IMG/VR virus record: IMGVR_UViG_3300009168_000007
Location: 534-64,533 of that record
Length of the DNA stretch: 64,000 nt
From: a virus
Lineage: Duplodnaviria; Caudoviricetes
Strand: one strand, 5' to 3'
The notes beneath the pieces were generated by a model. That model had not been told where the DNA came from. It saw only the letters and a program-made list of their open reading frames with translations, and made no database searches. Within the stretch, counting starts at the first letter, position 1. Every line of letters starts with the position of its first letter. A program made the position numbers and the translations under genes. This document shows, piece by piece, positions 26,572 to 32,747 of the stretch.

Positions 26572-27017
26572 TTATTTTTGGGTTGTTGCAGAACCAATAT
26601 TTAAAGAATCCCGAACGAATGGTGGATATGGTAAAAAGATACGGGGAGGACTCCCGTGAGGTATTTACAAAACATGCCCTATTTGCTGGATGTAAAACAG
26701 GGCAAAATCTCACGAGGATCTTTGGTCCTGAAGCGAAAACATGGATATGGGTAAACTGTACGCCACAAATAGGACGTACGACGAGTGAGCGATTTCCAAC
26801 CGATCTTGATTATATTATTGGAAAGTTGGAACACTACCAACCCGATATCATCATGGCTTTCGGCGGTCAGGCACGGGACGCGATGAGAAGAATAAAGACA
26901 GATGTTCCGGTTATTTTTACTGTTCATCCGGTCAATTGGGATCATGGGTCAACCGATCGATTATATACGGCGAGAAATGAACTAGATAGATTAAAGGAGA
27001 CATTCGATGGGCAATAG
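26541..27017 (+). CDS. uracil-DNA glycosylase-superfamily-like protein
   Basis: TGQNL, QPDIIMAFGGQA and VHP motifs of the UDG-like fold. Confidence 0.55.
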   Translation: MHLEDAYTNVIIFGLLQNQYLKNPERMVDMVKRYGEDSREVFTKHALFAGCKTGQNLTRIFGPEAKTWIWVNCTPQIGRTTSERFPTDLDYIIGKLEHYQPDIIMAFGGQARDAMRRIKTDVPVIFTVHPVNWDHGSTDRLYTARNELDRLKETFDGQ

Positions 27018-28056
27018 ATTATTGAACGACGTGTATGAGTTTCATAAAAAATATAATGTTCCAATTATGGATGAAGGATCATTGGGTTTTGCCGAGGATG
27101 GTCTGATAGACGCAAAAATTAATCACATAAAAGAAGAAACAAGTGAAATTATCGATGCATGGGCAAAGGAAGATATTTATGATTTTGCCGATGGAATCGT
27201 AGACCTTATTTATGTAACATTAGGACTTGCGATCGTGTGTGGTATACCGTTTGACCGCGTGTGGAATGAGGTACATACCTCTAATATGAAAAAGGTAGCG
27301 GTAGAACGATTAGATCAAAGTAAACGAGGTAATCGGTGGGATGTCGTAAAACCTGAAGGTTGGGAACCCCCGAACATTGAGAAAGCTTTCACGAGCGCAA
27401 AATATCCTTCGGATAATTATGACTTCAATCGCATATTTGTTCTTGAAGGTCCCGACGGATGCGGGAAAACAACCCTTGCGAAACAAATGATGTTCTTGAT
27501 GAGAGGGCTTGGTTTATATCCGTATTACCGTCATTTTACATATCCATTATGGCCGAACGTATCGGACTACATGGCTAATATTATGGTAGACGCGGTCAAT
27601 CAAATCAAGCATGGACCCGTGATCCTGGACAGGTCGTTCATATCGGACATGTTCTATTCCCGCGTGTTCCGTCATAATCGTGGCATAATGTTAGAGGATG
27701 GTATGGCGGAGACGTTGGATTTACTACTCCAGAGAAATGACGTGGTAACGGTTGTTTGCCTACCGGAATTTGATGAGTATCGTAAGAACTATATTACAAA
27801 ATTGAAGGACCATACCGAAATACACACCGAAATTGCCGGCATGGATTGTATCTATATGATGTATTCAATGTTACAAAGATCTCAACGGGTGATCCCGTAC
27901 AACTACAAGATAAACAATATACATTATATCACAAAGTCAATGGAGAAACATATCAGCCAACATGAAATTTCGATCTTCGAATATGCACATTATATCGTAA
28001 ATAACGTGTCGGCCGAAGAGTTACGAGGTAATAGCTATGGCGCTATCGGCGTATGA
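27007..28056 (+). CDS. fusion of MazG/all-alpha NTP pyrophosphatase and dNMP (thymidylate-type) kinase
   Basis: N-half VYEFHKKY..IKEETSE..DGIVDLIYV..EVHTSNMKK..KPEGWEPP; C-half LEGPDGCGKTT and ILDRSFISD. Confidence 0.85.
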   Translation: MGNRLLNDVYEFHKKYNVPIMDEGSLGFAEDGLIDAKINHIKEETSEIIDAWAKEDIYDFADGIVDLIYVTLGLAIVCGIPFDRVWNEVHTSNMKKVAVERLDQSKRGNRWDVVKPEGWEPPNIEKAFTSAKYPSDNYDFNRIFVLEGPDGCGKTTLAKQMMFLMRGLGLYPYYRHFTYPLWPNVSDYMANIMVDAVNQIKHGPVILDRSFISDMFYSRVFRHNRGIMLEDGMAETLDLLLQRNDVVTVVCLPEFDEYRKNYITKLKDHTEIHTEIAGMDCIYMMYSMLQRSQRVIPYNYKINNIHYITKSMEKHISQHEISIFEYAHYIVNNVSAEELRGNSYGAIGV

Positions 28057-28224
28057 CGAGGGATACGCCGCCGGTCGTATAGATAGCCATGACGGCGTAA
28101 AACCAAAACCCGATACGAACCCATACTCACTCTCTTGTAAAAAGAAACGTCGAGCATGGGAGAACGGGTACCTCACAGGGTACCAGGGAAAACCACAAAG
28201 GCAACATATTTTGCCATGGAGTGA

Positions 28225-28839
28225 ATGATGAGTGAACCTTTAAAAATAGAAGACCGTCAAAACAATTCTGAACAGAACGAACTAGTGGAAGAACTCATCA
28301 AGTTAAAAAATGAGTTCTACAATGTAGCCATGAAGAGTATGCATGAACATGGTGAAATGGCCAAGTTACAGGAAAAATCGGCGGAGGAAGCAGAACTTGA
28401 ATTAATGGACAAGTTTGAACACGATAAAGCAAAATTTTACAAACAACTCGCGTTGAAGGATTCCGCGGTTATGCATGAAATAAATAAACTCCGCGATCAA
28501 AACTATCCTGCCGACGACCCAAATCCAAGGGAAGATATTCGTAATTCACTTGAGTTTCGGTTACGGGTTGTTCTGAATAAGTATTTTCGTGATGGTTGTA
28601 TATGTCCAAAGGACCTTAACAACCTAAAACTCGATTTTCAATCCATGCTCGTATATCTCGAGACGATCATGAATGATAAACAAATTGTTTACAATCATGG
28701 TTATATTCTCAAGCAGATATTTAAAATTATTACCGGTCGAAGTCACAACTATGAACGAGAAAATGCTATTATCGTTCCAAAAATAAACTCGACTATACCA
28801 ATCACGGCGGTTGGTATAAACAATGAAGATTCTAAGTAA
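28225..28839 (+). CDS. hypothetical coiled-coil protein
   Basis: Long ORF in operon. Confidence 0.7.
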   Translation: MMSEPLKIEDRQNNSEQNELVEELIKLKNEFYNVAMKSMHEHGEMAKLQEKSAEEAELELMDKFEHDKAKFYKQLALKDSAVMHEINKLRDQNYPADDPNPREDIRNSLEFRLRVVLNKYFRDGCICPKDLNNLKLDFQSMLVYLETIMNDKQIVYNHGYILKQIFKIITGRSHNYERENAIIVPKINSTIPITAVGINNEDSK

Positions 28840-30570: not shown

Positions 30571-31505
30571 TGTCATTTGAGAACGATTTAACCTGGTCAT
30601 ATTCGCGGTATAACAAATTTAGCATGTGCAAGCGCCAATATTTCTATCATTACTATCTGTCATGGGGTGGATGGAATATTGGCGCACCGAAGGATGTCCA
30701 ACTGGCCTATCGTTTGAAAAACCTTATGGGGTTAGCCGGTTGGGTTGGCGACACGATCCATAAGGAGATCGAGACTTTATTAAAGATGCTATCCTCCGGC
30801 ACGACAATGAGCAAAAAAATTCGTGCCGACATTCTTCGAAATTTGCCGAAACAAATGACGAAGGAATGGTTAGCCTCCAAAAAACAAACAATGGAGGGGA
30901 ATCCAAAATCCCTGTGGTTAATAGACCACTATTATAGTCTACAGGTAGATAATAAACTACAGGGACTTATCACTCAGGCCGTAGAGTGTATGTCCAATTT
31001 CCTCGACTCAGGTTTATTCTCTAGTATATTAAAATTAAATATACCGGAGAATTGGTTATCGATCGAGGAACTAAAATTTACCTTTGTTGCTGGGACAAAA
31101 GTGTGGGTAAAGATCGATTTTATCTATAAGGATGATAAGGATTATCTTGTTATGCTCGATTGGAAGACGGGTAAGCGCAAAACGGCGGATGCGGCCCAGA
31201 TGGGGATTTACGGTTGCTATTTACGTGAAACATATAATACATTTCCGGCATACAAAATTAAAGCCGTTGATGTTTACGTGAATAACAATCCACCGGTCCT
31301 TGAACCTTGGATAATTAAGGACAAGGATATTAAGTATGCTGAACAAATGATCACAAAAAGTATTGGCGAGATGATGGATCTTCTCAAAAAGAAGTCCACT
31401 AATACACCAAAAACAATTCAATACTTTCCAAGAGTCAATACGACTTGCCAGGGTATTTGTAACTGGTGTGGTTTTAGGCAATTATGCCATGGAGTCGACA
31501 AATGA
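30570..31505 (+). CDS. PD-(D/E)XK Cas4/AddB-like exonuclease
   Basis: WSYSR..C, KIDF, LDWKTG, Q..IY, C-terminal CNWCGFRQLC. Confidence 0.85.
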   Translation: MSFENDLTWSYSRYNKFSMCKRQYFYHYYLSWGGWNIGAPKDVQLAYRLKNLMGLAGWVGDTIHKEIETLLKMLSSGTTMSKKIRADILRNLPKQMTKEWLASKKQTMEGNPKSLWLIDHYYSLQVDNKLQGLITQAVECMSNFLDSGLFSSILKLNIPENWLSIEELKFTFVAGTKVWVKIDFIYKDDKDYLVMLDWKTGKRKTADAAQMGIYGCYLRETYNTFPAYKIKAVDVYVNNNPPVLEPWIIKDKDIKYAEQMITKSIGEMMDLLKKKSTNTPKTIQYFPRVNTTCQGICNWCGFRQLCHGVDK

Positions 31506-32266
31506 ATAAAAATTACTTGACGGCAGAGGAATATTTCGAAGGGTTACTCCCAGAGTCCAAGGTTCAATATTCGCTTTGGATAAAAGGGCGTGCGGGCGGA
31601 TCGGTCGTTAAACGATTCGAGGATGATATTAATCACGCAAGGCGGTATATAGAAGAACATAAGAGCGGATTAATCAAGGGCGATATGACCGCAGGTTTTA
31701 TCGATTATTATGGTGGAGATGTGGTCGGTGAATCGATTAATGAGCACAATCAAGAATTAATGATTAAGGCTTACAACGCCCTAGCCTTAATCTCCTTGGA
31801 AAAAGACGATATAAAACCTGTGCTACAATATAGTGATCTTGATTATTCGCTCGACGGTTTGATCTCGATTTATCGGGATAAGTTGAAGGGTATCCAAAGG
31901 TCAATGCGTCGTATACACGATATTGACGTGAACGACCAACGTCTTGTTCACGTATGGTGGAATATAATGTTTCAAAGAACCATTAAACCTCCGGCACAAA
32001 CGGAACTATACACAAAATTATTTACATCGATCTTCATTTACCCGTGCGCATACCCACATAGAATATTTAGGTTGCCATGGATACGTGCAGCTTTATCGTC
32101 AGGATTCGAATATTGTCAACTATTTGGTCCGTACATAAATGTAAAAATAGCCACCACAAAAACGGCAGACGACGTTAAAAAATTATTATGTTATGATCCG
32201 ACCCATATCACGGTTCATATCATGGAGGACGGCGATGATCCCACCGAAAACAATGACACTATCTAG
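31502..32266 (+). CDS. hypothetical protein
   Basis: Long ORF with ATGA coupling. Confidence 0.65.
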   Translation: MNKNYLTAEEYFEGLLPESKVQYSLWIKGRAGGSVVKRFEDDINHARRYIEEHKSGLIKGDMTAGFIDYYGGDVVGESINEHNQELMIKAYNALALISLEKDDIKPVLQYSDLDYSLDGLISIYRDKLKGIQRSMRRIHDIDVNDQRLVHVWWNIMFQRTIKPPAQTELYTKLFTSIFIYPCAYPHRIFRLPWIRAALSSGFEYCQLFGPYINVKIATTKTADDVKKLLCYDPTHITVHIMEDGDDPTENNDTI

Positions 32267-32747
32267 TGCGTTTAGCATGCAGGAGACTTGCCTCGCGGTT
32301 GCGGGAGTAATTGCGATCTCAAGATCGAAGGACCCACGTACTAAAGTGGGTGCGGTGGTGTATGACCCGGAAACGGGAGGAATGTTCTTTGGGTATAATG
32401 GGTTCCCAAAAAATATTCCTGATGAAACGGCCATTTGGGAAACACCTAATAAGTACGACTATGTCGTACATGCCGAGGTAAATGCTATCCGTAAGGCCAC
32501 TTCAGCTCTAGGCCATCATGTGTCACGGTGCGAATTATATAGCACCAATCATCCCTGTCATTGTTGCATGAAGGATGCAATCATACCGGCGGGGATCAAG
32601 AAGATCCGTTATATTAATTCTCACCCTGAGGACGAGTTAACGGACGAGTGGATTAAGATGCTTGAAATTGATGTTAGACAATTGACCATCCACATGACGT
32701 TGGAGTTAACGATTAATGGAAAAAAAGTAACATATACGACAAAATAA
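32235..32747 (+). CDS. dCMP deaminase
   Basis: SKDPRTKVGA, GYNG, VHAEVNAI, PCHCC. Confidence 0.95.
   Translation: MIPPKTMTLSSAFSMQETCLAVAGVIAISRSKDPRTKVGAVVYDPETGGMFFGYNGFPKNIPDETAIWETPNKYDYVVHAEVNAIRKATSALGHHVSRCELYSTNHPCHCCMKDAIIPAGIKKIRYINSHPEDELTDEWIKMLEIDVRQLTIHMTLELTINGKKVTYTTK

Follow-up and report, generated by a model that had tools for sequence, protein, structure and literature searches.

A fused MazG-kinase protein and an Asp-type ThyA homologue suggest nucleotide-level cytosine replacement in a Caudoviricetes phage

Here, we describe a predicted nucleotide-metabolism module in a virus of the Caudoviricetes and weigh the evidence that it serves to replace cytosine in the phage DNA. 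The module includes a protein in which a MazG-type pyrophosphatase is fused to a kinase, a ThyA homologue, a deoxycytidine monophosphate (dCMP) deaminase and the thymidylate synthase (TS) ThyX. The stretch analyzed, from here on the window, comprises 64,000 nucleotides and corresponds to bases 534-64533 of the IMG/VR record IMGVR_UViG_3300009168_000007, which has a length of 64,533 bp and is a complete genome with direct terminal repeats. The plus strand carries genes from ~13.8 to ~44.3 kb of the window. The module starts with a methyltransferase dependent on S-adenosylmethionine (SAM), a small open reading frame (ORF) resembling the uracil-DNA glycosylase (UDG) superfamily and the fusion ORF; three ORFs without a family match and ThyX follow. 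Downstream of ThyX lie a PD-(D/E)XK nuclease, the dCMP deaminase, an SNF2 helicase and proteins similar to Pam3 gp32, gp33 and gp34, and then an archaeo-eukaryotic-type primase, a UvrD helicase, the ThyA homologue, the family A DNA polymerase PolA and a lysozyme (Table 1).

Table 1. Positions in the window of the genes and domains discussed here, with the basis of each assignment.
Feature	Position	Strand	Basis
Class I SAM-dependent methyltransferase, first gene of the module	25831..26571	+	Pfam Methyltransf_23/31/25/11/12
Small UDG-superfamily-like ORF	26541..27017	+	PF03167 weak, E 0.0026, below cut-off
MazG-kinase fusion ORF, 349 aa, uninterrupted	27007..28056	+	ORF translation
MazG/PRA-PH-type all-alpha nucleoside triphosphate (NTP) pyrophosphatase, N-terminal half	27007..27411	+	PF01503 44.2 bits, phrog_671, DR2231
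Thymidylate-kinase-fold P-loop deoxynucleoside monophosphate (dNMP) kinase, C-terminal half	27433..28056	+	phrog_761 3.2e-11, P-loop, Foldseek
ThyX, flavin-dependent thymidylate synthase (dUMP to dTMP)	29587..30570	+	PF02511, TIGR02170
dCMP deaminase (dCMP to dUMP)	32193..32747	+	PF00383, phrog_174, zinc motifs
ThyA homologue, 403 aa, predicted dCMP hydroxymethylase	39917..41128	+	PF00303 63.6 bits, phrog_5131 3e-88
Family A DNA polymerase (PolA) with 3'-5' exonuclease	41263..43200	+	PF00476 1.4e-60 and PF01612

The fusion is a single reading frame, as the first-pass annotation of this DNA had described it, and both halves are matched by profiles as well as by Foldseek. Residues 3-135 match the Pfam family PF01503 (PRA-PH) with 44.2 bits against a cut-off of 21.3 and the family phrog_671 'nucleotide pyrophosphohydrolase' with an E-value of 1.2e-25. 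The same half matches the MazG-like dUTPase DR2231 in the PDB (2.8e-7), and among cultured phages it is most similar to the MazG part of the Xp12 'hydrolase' (42% identity). In an alignment of 21 fused proteins, the metal-binding acidic residues E43, E44, E47, D62 and D66 are invariant; with these residues and a score over the cut-off, the N-terminal half belongs to the MazG/PRA-PH family. Residues 143-262 match phrog_761 'thymidylate kinase' (3.2e-11), while the matches of this half to PF02223 (16 bits versus 27) and TIGR00041 (19.6 bits versus 83.25) are below the curated cut-offs and cover the P-loop part only. Invariant in the kinase half of the same 21 proteins are the P-loop residues G148, D150, G153 and K154, a D208-R209 motif, Y217 and R222, and the P-loop together with the DR(Y/H/F)-type motif identifies a nucleoside monophosphate kinase fold. 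The AlphaFold2 model has a mean predicted local distance difference test (pLDDT) score of 78 with a disordered linker (residues 131-137). Foldseek places the MazG half with DR2231 (2yeu, 2yf3, 5hva) and the kinase half with 2pbr (2.3e-5), 1n5l, 1nn5 and 3kb2, i.e. thymidylate kinases, YorR and a deoxynucleoside kinase.

When 1.84 billion cluster representatives were searched exhaustively, 7,467 relatives of the fusion were obtained (E ≤ 0.001), the majority of which are stand-alone MazG proteins; this search was used instead of a word-index protein search that gave only four matches. Same-order fusions are present in ~20 of the best 150 representatives, and the catalytic motifs are kept in both halves. 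Thus, the fusion is not an artefact. Neither the single fusion protein nor the single TS protein, used as queries for related loci, returned relatives, and an alignment query was needed. Because a trimeric dUTPase was not found in the genome and a dNMP kinase of the T4 gp1 type (phrog_139) has no match anywhere in the 64.5-kb genome (E ≤ 0.01), the pyrophosphatase and kinase steps have no candidate other than the fusion. In a separate observation, protein P0002 (348 aa, from a 66.9-kb public contig) has the same type of MazG joined to a non-homologous dNMP kinase of the T4 gp1 type (phrog_38514, 4.5e-84; phrog_139, 3e-12), and fusions of a pyrophosphatase with a kinase have, therefore, arisen with two different kinase families.

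The ThyA homologue lies directly upstream of PolA and outside the span 27007-32747 on which the first-pass annotation had focused. Its best match in the PDB is the CMP hydroxymethylase MilA (8e-20). Aligned with T4 gp42, the Xp12 TS and PaMx11 gp51 (alignment A1; positions below are in E. coli ThyA numbering), it retains the equivalents of the catalytic residues Cys146 and Glu58, and C169 and E68 are invariant in this alignment. At the position of Asn177 it has Asp, which aligns with Asp179 of gp42, and at the position of Leu143, three residues before the catalytic Cys, it also has Asp, as do gp42 and PaMx11 gp51. In the published analysis of this enzyme family, N177D is described as marking dCMP as the substrate, and an acidic residue at position 143 (L143D/E) as correlating with a hydroxymethyl rather than a methyl product by way of water access (PMC13326640). 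Because of the Asp at the Asn177 position, the enzyme is predicted to take dCMP instead of dUMP, and its active-site signature is that of a dCMP hydroxymethylase. A synthase of the RB69 gp48/DLP3 gp80 type, which would lead to 5-hydroxycytosine, was ruled out since these enzymes are marked by D169N (PMC13326640) and Asp169 is kept here.

By overall similarity, the ThyA homologue falls in the clade of long-form dUMP hydroxymethylases of the PaMx11/M6 type, with 32% identity to PaMx11 gp51 over 97% of its length. Since the PaMx11 modification is built on 5-hydroxymethyl-dU (PMC8989533), this membership leads us to expect hydroxymethyl chemistry. Among the 119 nearest homologues in a collection of 5.8 billion proteins, 117 have Asn and two have Asp at position 177, and the enzyme is thus a rare Asn-to-Asp variant in a family whose members normally read uracil. 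In a FastTree phylogeny, the three Asp-type long-form enzymes do not form one clade: the window enzyme, on a long branch, and P0155 share a 12-leaf clade (support 0.72) and P0214 is placed apart, and the tree leaves undecided whether there was one switch or several. A scan of metagenomes aimed at the P0214 contig gave a best match of 42% identity and yielded the metagenome controls used below. As a side observation, the enzyme has a C-terminal extension of ~160 residues with conserved Asp-Trp and Trp positions that is common to PaMx11 gp51 and the long-form clade.

As a check, the first-pass annotation had proposed to ask whether the fusion occurs together with Asp-type TS homologues, i.e. those with Asp at position 177, and this is clearly borne out. 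With an alignment of the fused family, we retrieved 80 IMG/VR loci using the P-loop pattern of the kinase and tblastn, with no reference to TS, and determined their gene content by our own ORF calling and phmmer (E ≤ 1e-4). A TS homologue is present in the flanks of 71 of the 80 loci, and of the 72 TS ORFs 70 are Asp-type, one is cut off by the end of the locus and one is Asn-type and a second gene (L048). Position 143 is mostly Asp in these enzymes, with Arg in six, Asn in one and Ala in one. Of the 58 loci with both MazG and the kinase, two have them fused, 37 have them as neighbors on the same strand and 19 have them at a greater distance; where a locus contains a kinase and a TS gene (55 loci), the two abut in 51. 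As controls, we used the long-form TS family, i.e. the nearest relatives, to collect 80 loci from viruses and 80 from metagenomes. All 160 are Asn-type, and within flanks of up to 10 kb the kinase was found in 0/160 of them and MazG in 0/80 of the viral controls, with a weak match in 4/80 of the metagenome controls. We also note an Asp-type TS subfamily with Arg at position 143 and a changed motif around Asp169 (L013, L028, L051, L054, L067 and L082): its genes adjoin MazG, and these six loci, which account for all Arg-143 enzymes, are without a detected kinase.

ThyX and the dCMP deaminase, both placed in this region by the first-pass annotation, score well over the respective cut-offs. ThyX matches PF02511 (126 bits, 2e-36), the equivalog model TIGR02170 (124.6 bits, cut-off 87.9) and PDB entry 6j61 (3.6e-35); in its RHR..S motif the His is replaced by Tyr while the Ser and both Arg are kept, and the C-terminus carries ~100 extra residues. 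The deaminase matches PF00383 (58.7 bits, cut-off 25) and phrog_174 (1e-26), and its translation contains the HAE and PCxxC zinc motifs. Its annotated start is overlapped by 74 bases by ORF 31484-32266, which is why the gene probably starts further downstream. In 21 large records with MazG and kinase (G001-G021), TS is present in 21/21, the dCMP deaminase in 18/21 and ThyX in 2/21, and a second, Asn-type ThyA in only one (behind L048). Thus, of these two enzymes, which the first-pass annotation had both grouped with the fusion, the deaminase is part of the conserved module and ThyX is not. In records without ThyX, dTMP could come from a host enzyme or be made via deamination of modified dCMP.

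Based on these data, we suggest that the phage probably replaces cytosine before replication, at the level of the free nucleotides, by way of 5-hydroxymethyl-dCMP made by the Asp-type ThyA homologue; comparative evidence largely supports the interpretation as cytosine replacement. In this model, the MazG half would act as a dCTPase, possibly as a dCTPase and dUTPase, and hydrolyze competing dCTP and perhaps dUTP to the monophosphate, by which C would be excluded from the DNA and the hydroxymethylase fed. The ThyA homologue would convert dCMP to its modified form, most probably by adding a hydroxymethyl group, and the kinase half would phosphorylate 5-hydroxymethyl-dCMP to the diphosphate. A host nucleoside diphosphate kinase would then make the triphosphate, and the PolA of the phage, which the first-pass annotation had correctly assigned, would incorporate the modified nucleotide. 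In parallel, part of the dCMP would be converted to dUMP by the deaminase and on to dTMP by ThyX; the two would supply dTMP because the ThyA homologue could no longer make it. With the pyrophosphatase and the kinase in one protein, removal of the competitor and commitment of the modified nucleotide would take place side by side. The domains, their catalytic motifs, the residue that reads the base and the linkage across genomes are observed directly, whereas the substrate of each enzyme, a hydroxymethyl instead of a methyl product and the degree to which C is substituted are inferred.

The logic of this model is that of phage T4. T4 makes 5-hydroxymethylcytosine with the dCTPase/dUTPase gp56, the dCMP hydroxymethylase gp42, the dNMP kinase gp1, the deaminase cd and the TS td. 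The same five functional roles are predicted in the window phage, and the ThyA homologue agrees with gp42 in its catalytic Cys, in Asp at position 177 and in having an acidic residue at position 143. The parts, by contrast, are different, as the first-pass annotation had proposed. The MazG half has no profile-level similarity to gp56 (hhalign with the 21-sequence profile; probability 0.2%, E 0.32), the kinase has the Tmk fold instead of being of the gp1 type, ThyX stands in for td, and the pyrophosphatase and kinase form one polypeptide. Moreover, a glucosyltransferase was not found among the ORFs scanned, and the SAM methyltransferase and the UDG-like protein are added. What did not hold is the idea that the pathway was newly rebuilt in this phage, since the module is widespread, mostly as adjacent rather than fused genes, and is also present in the cultured phage AXL3 and, as a triad of families, in modified metavirome contigs.

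AXL3, a Stenotrophomonas phage (Axeltriavirus), encodes a methyltransferase, MazG, a Tmk-like kinase, an Asp-type TS and a dCMP deaminase in a row, with ThyX elsewhere (gp27-gp31 and gp50). The fusion is 32% identical across the AXL3 MazG and kinase genes together. In AXL3, however, these are separate overlapping genes, the kinase continues at its C-terminus into a UDG-like domain, and the TS is of the short form and directly downstream. According to the published description of AXL3, its DNA was cut by only 2 of 37 restriction enzymes, both with A/T-only sites, and resisted the 35 enzymes with G/C in their sites (PMC7504290). In the MetaGPA study (eLife 2021), contigs were selected experimentally for modified cytosine, and PF00303, PF01503 and PF00383 are reported to co-occur, often specifically on the modified contigs (PMC8670742). 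All three families (TS, PRA-PH and dCMP deaminase) are present in the window genome. By contrast, the published work centers on carbamoyltransferases, of which none was found in the window genome, and its main text contains no mention of the terms 'kinase' or 'methyltransf' (PMC8670742).

Several points weigh against the model. The structures of DR2231, the closest solved relative of the MazG half, are deposited in the PDB as a MazG-like NTP pyrophosphohydrolase with dUMP and dUMPNPP, and we take DR2231 to be dUTP-specific. The MazG family is broad, with matches in 172 phage records, many of them from Microbacterium phages. The kinase half, judged by its thymidylate-kinase fold, could simply be a dTMP kinase. 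The TS homologue here is 12 kb from the fusion, unlike in the relatives where kinase and TS abut, and the control flanks, at 10 kb, are shorter than this distance and the control is, therefore, not airtight. Because the nearest homologues are almost all dUMP-type, it is conceivable that the Asp is a tolerated variant. Finally, the Leu143 rule is described as a correlation only (PMC13326640), and the modified base in AXL3 has not been identified chemically in the published account (PMC7504290).

One alternative is an ordinary thymidylate supply. The deaminase would then provide dUMP for ThyX, the ThyA homologue or both to turn into dTMP, the fusion would combine a house-cleaning dUTPase (MazG half) with a plain dTMP kinase, and the DNA would be unmodified. 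The Tmk fold and the weak match of the kinase half to a dTMP kinase model fit this alternative, as do the proximity of the MazG half to DR2231 and the score of ThyX over its equivalog cut-off, and the authors of the AXL3 study themselves read the equivalent genes as a thymidylate pathway (PMC7504290). On the other hand, it leaves the phage with two redundant thymidylate synthases and does not account for the Asp at the base-reading position of the ThyA homologue or for the pairing of MazG/kinase with Asp-type TS, set against the lack of the kinase in the Asn-type controls. The resistance of AXL3 DNA to every tested enzyme with G/C in its site (PMC7504290) and the MetaGPA association with modified cytosine (PMC8670742) also argue against it. 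We therefore regard an ordinary thymidylate supply as improbable and favor cytosine replacement.

If cytosine is replaced, the product could be methylated as in the Xanthomonas phage Xp12, the DNA of which contains 5-methylcytosine: the ThyA homologue would then be a dCMP methylase acting within the same overall scheme. The MazG domains of the two phages are close, as noted above, and Xp12 also has an Asp-type TS clustered with a dCMP deaminase. The remainder of the Xp12 arrangement is different in that its MazG domain is part of a 257-aa protein annotated as a HAD-superfamily hydrolase and is not joined to a kinase, and DHFR is present instead of ThyX. Our call for a hydroxymethyl product draws on one correlated residue, under a rule that is itself a correlation (PMC13326640), and on clade membership. 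Xp12 has Asn at position 143, whereas the window enzyme, like T4 gp42 and PaMx11 gp51, has Asp; moreover, the window enzyme groups with the PaMx11 hydroxymethylases and is only 25% identical to the Xp12 enzyme. On balance, a methylated product seems unlikely to us, and 5-hydroxymethyl-dCMP is the product that we favor.

The PaMx11 clade also brings up the replacement of thymidine as in PaMx11 and M6, in which the ThyA homologue would make 5-hydroxymethyl-dUMP, the kinase would phosphorylate this product and the MazG half would remove dTTP. The window enzyme is closest to PaMx11 gp51 and M6 dUMP hydroxymethylase among the characterized enzymes, with similarity over the full length including the C-terminal extension; nearly all of its nearest homologues are Asn-type, and the gene is in synteny with PolA and an SNF2 helicase, the TS gene being upstream of PolA in both phages. 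Yet, the base-reading residue is Asp here and Asn in gp51, a dTMP-making enzyme (ThyX) is present, and the 160 Asn-type loci are without this kinase. Homologues of PaMx11 gp46-gp50 (amino-acid:DNA transferase, lyase, acetyltransferase and 5-hydroxymethyl-deoxyuridine (5-hmdU) DNA kinase), i.e. the downstream hypermodification genes, were not found in the window by tblastn (E ≤ 0.01), and among 30 ORFs scanned the Pfam families for the 5-hmdU DNA kinase and aGPT-Pplase/amino-acid:DNA transferase were not found. Thus, the window does not appear to encode a thymidine hypermodification system of the PaMx11/M6 type, and we consider thymidine replacement very improbable.

Two companion genes, which the first-pass annotation had missed, lie just upstream of the fusion. 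Of the 80 MazG/kinase loci, 40 contain a homologue of the SAM methyltransferase (E 1e-24 to 1e-47), which in 34 of them immediately precedes MazG; AXL3 gp31 is also a homologue. Among the controls, 25 of 160 loci have a more distant homologue ~1.1 kb upstream of the Asn-type TS, and the family, occurring near both Asp- and Asn-type TS, therefore seems to be tied to makers of hydroxymethyl-pyrimidines in general. The nearest solved relative of the methyltransferase is the bacterial Hen1 2'-O-methyltransferase, and clusters of look-alikes are mostly viral. The second companion resembles a UDG-superfamily-like domain with a conserved His-Pro motif that most relatives (38 of 58), among them L085 10340-11323 (AXL3 gp29) and L005 10502-11668, carry as a C-terminal part of the kinase. 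The window ORF is separate, more divergent, upstream of the fusion and without the acidic residue of the first motif. Compared with the domain of the relatives by hhalign, it gave a probability of 48% (E 2e-4), and the two share invariant G, P, N, G and HP positions (alignment A4); a BLASTP comparison with the C-terminus of P0005 was not significant, and phmmer against all loci gave no match. Its structural model is of low confidence (pLDDT 61), and the best structural matches, to the UDG family with E ≥ 2e-3, are suggestive only. ORF 26541-27017 is probably the free-standing equivalent of the kinase-fused domain.

The methyltransferase and the UDG-like protein are part of this conserved module, and their target is probably the modified base. 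Going further, we can imagine that the methyltransferase adds a cap to the hydroxymethyl group, or methylates the modified nucleotide in some other way, giving rise to an undescribed DNA base, that the UDG-like domain is a reader or a repair/exclusion enzyme, and that the lineage moved from thymine to cytosine replacement by a single Asn-to-Asp change in a dUMP hydroxymethylase and capture of the MazG-kinase cassette. This scenario is speculative and, taken as a whole, rather doubtful. Among the matches listed, the term methoxymethyl is absent from papers on phage hypermodification.

With respect to the genome as a whole, the structural genes stand apart from the replication genes. The replication block 32747-44329 (SNF2 helicase, ThyA homologue, PolA and ORF 43372-44049) resembles, in sequence and in gene order, that of PaMx11 (L003) and Xp12 (L001), both Bradleyvirinae, of which PaMx11 modifies T and Xp12 modifies C; PolA is 34% identical to PaMx11 PolA and syntenic with PaMx11 gp55. 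Despite this shared block, the structural genes are unrelated to those of any cultured phage, and the terminase has less than 30% identity to any cultured phage. Nine structural ORFs scanned include the tape measure, portal and major head protein, and no tail sheath was found among them; the earlier assignment as a siphovirus is therefore plausible, though by a light check. The region 27007-32747 has no near-identity DNA match among 50,697 phage records. ORFs 28225-28839, 28823-29374, 29376-29600 and 31484-32266 have no match in Pfam, PHROGs or NCBIfam. Homologues of 28225-28839, 28823-29374 and 31484-32266 were not found in 160 viral loci, with the exception of one match of 28823-29374 in L134, and none of 29376-29600 was found in related loci.

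A pathway of this kind has been described before, in T4 and in the MetaGPA metavirome contigs, and AXL3 is a cultured carrier. Its logic is textbook knowledge and the module is a recurrent one; the fusion alone is, therefore, a modest finding. New here are the fused form, which is found in 2 of 58 comparable loci; a rare Asn-to-Asp variant in the dUMP-hydroxymethylase clade (2 of the 119 nearest homologues), which is beside PolA and not beside the kinase; and the companion SAM methyltransferase and UDG-like domain. The window also differs from most comparable modules in having ThyX. The Asp variant in a uracil-reading family would be a natural specificity experiment. It has a parallel in the classic N177D and D179N mutants and offers a hint of how phages change the base that they disguise. 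Undescribed chemistry could lie in the tightly linked methyltransferase and UDG-like domain, and AXL3, which carries both, is in culture. If our model is correct, the pair of a MazG/PRA-PH protein and a Tmk-like kinase, genes that are usually annotated as 'thymidylate metabolism', as was done for AXL3, would mark nucleotide-level cytosine replacement in many uncultured phages.

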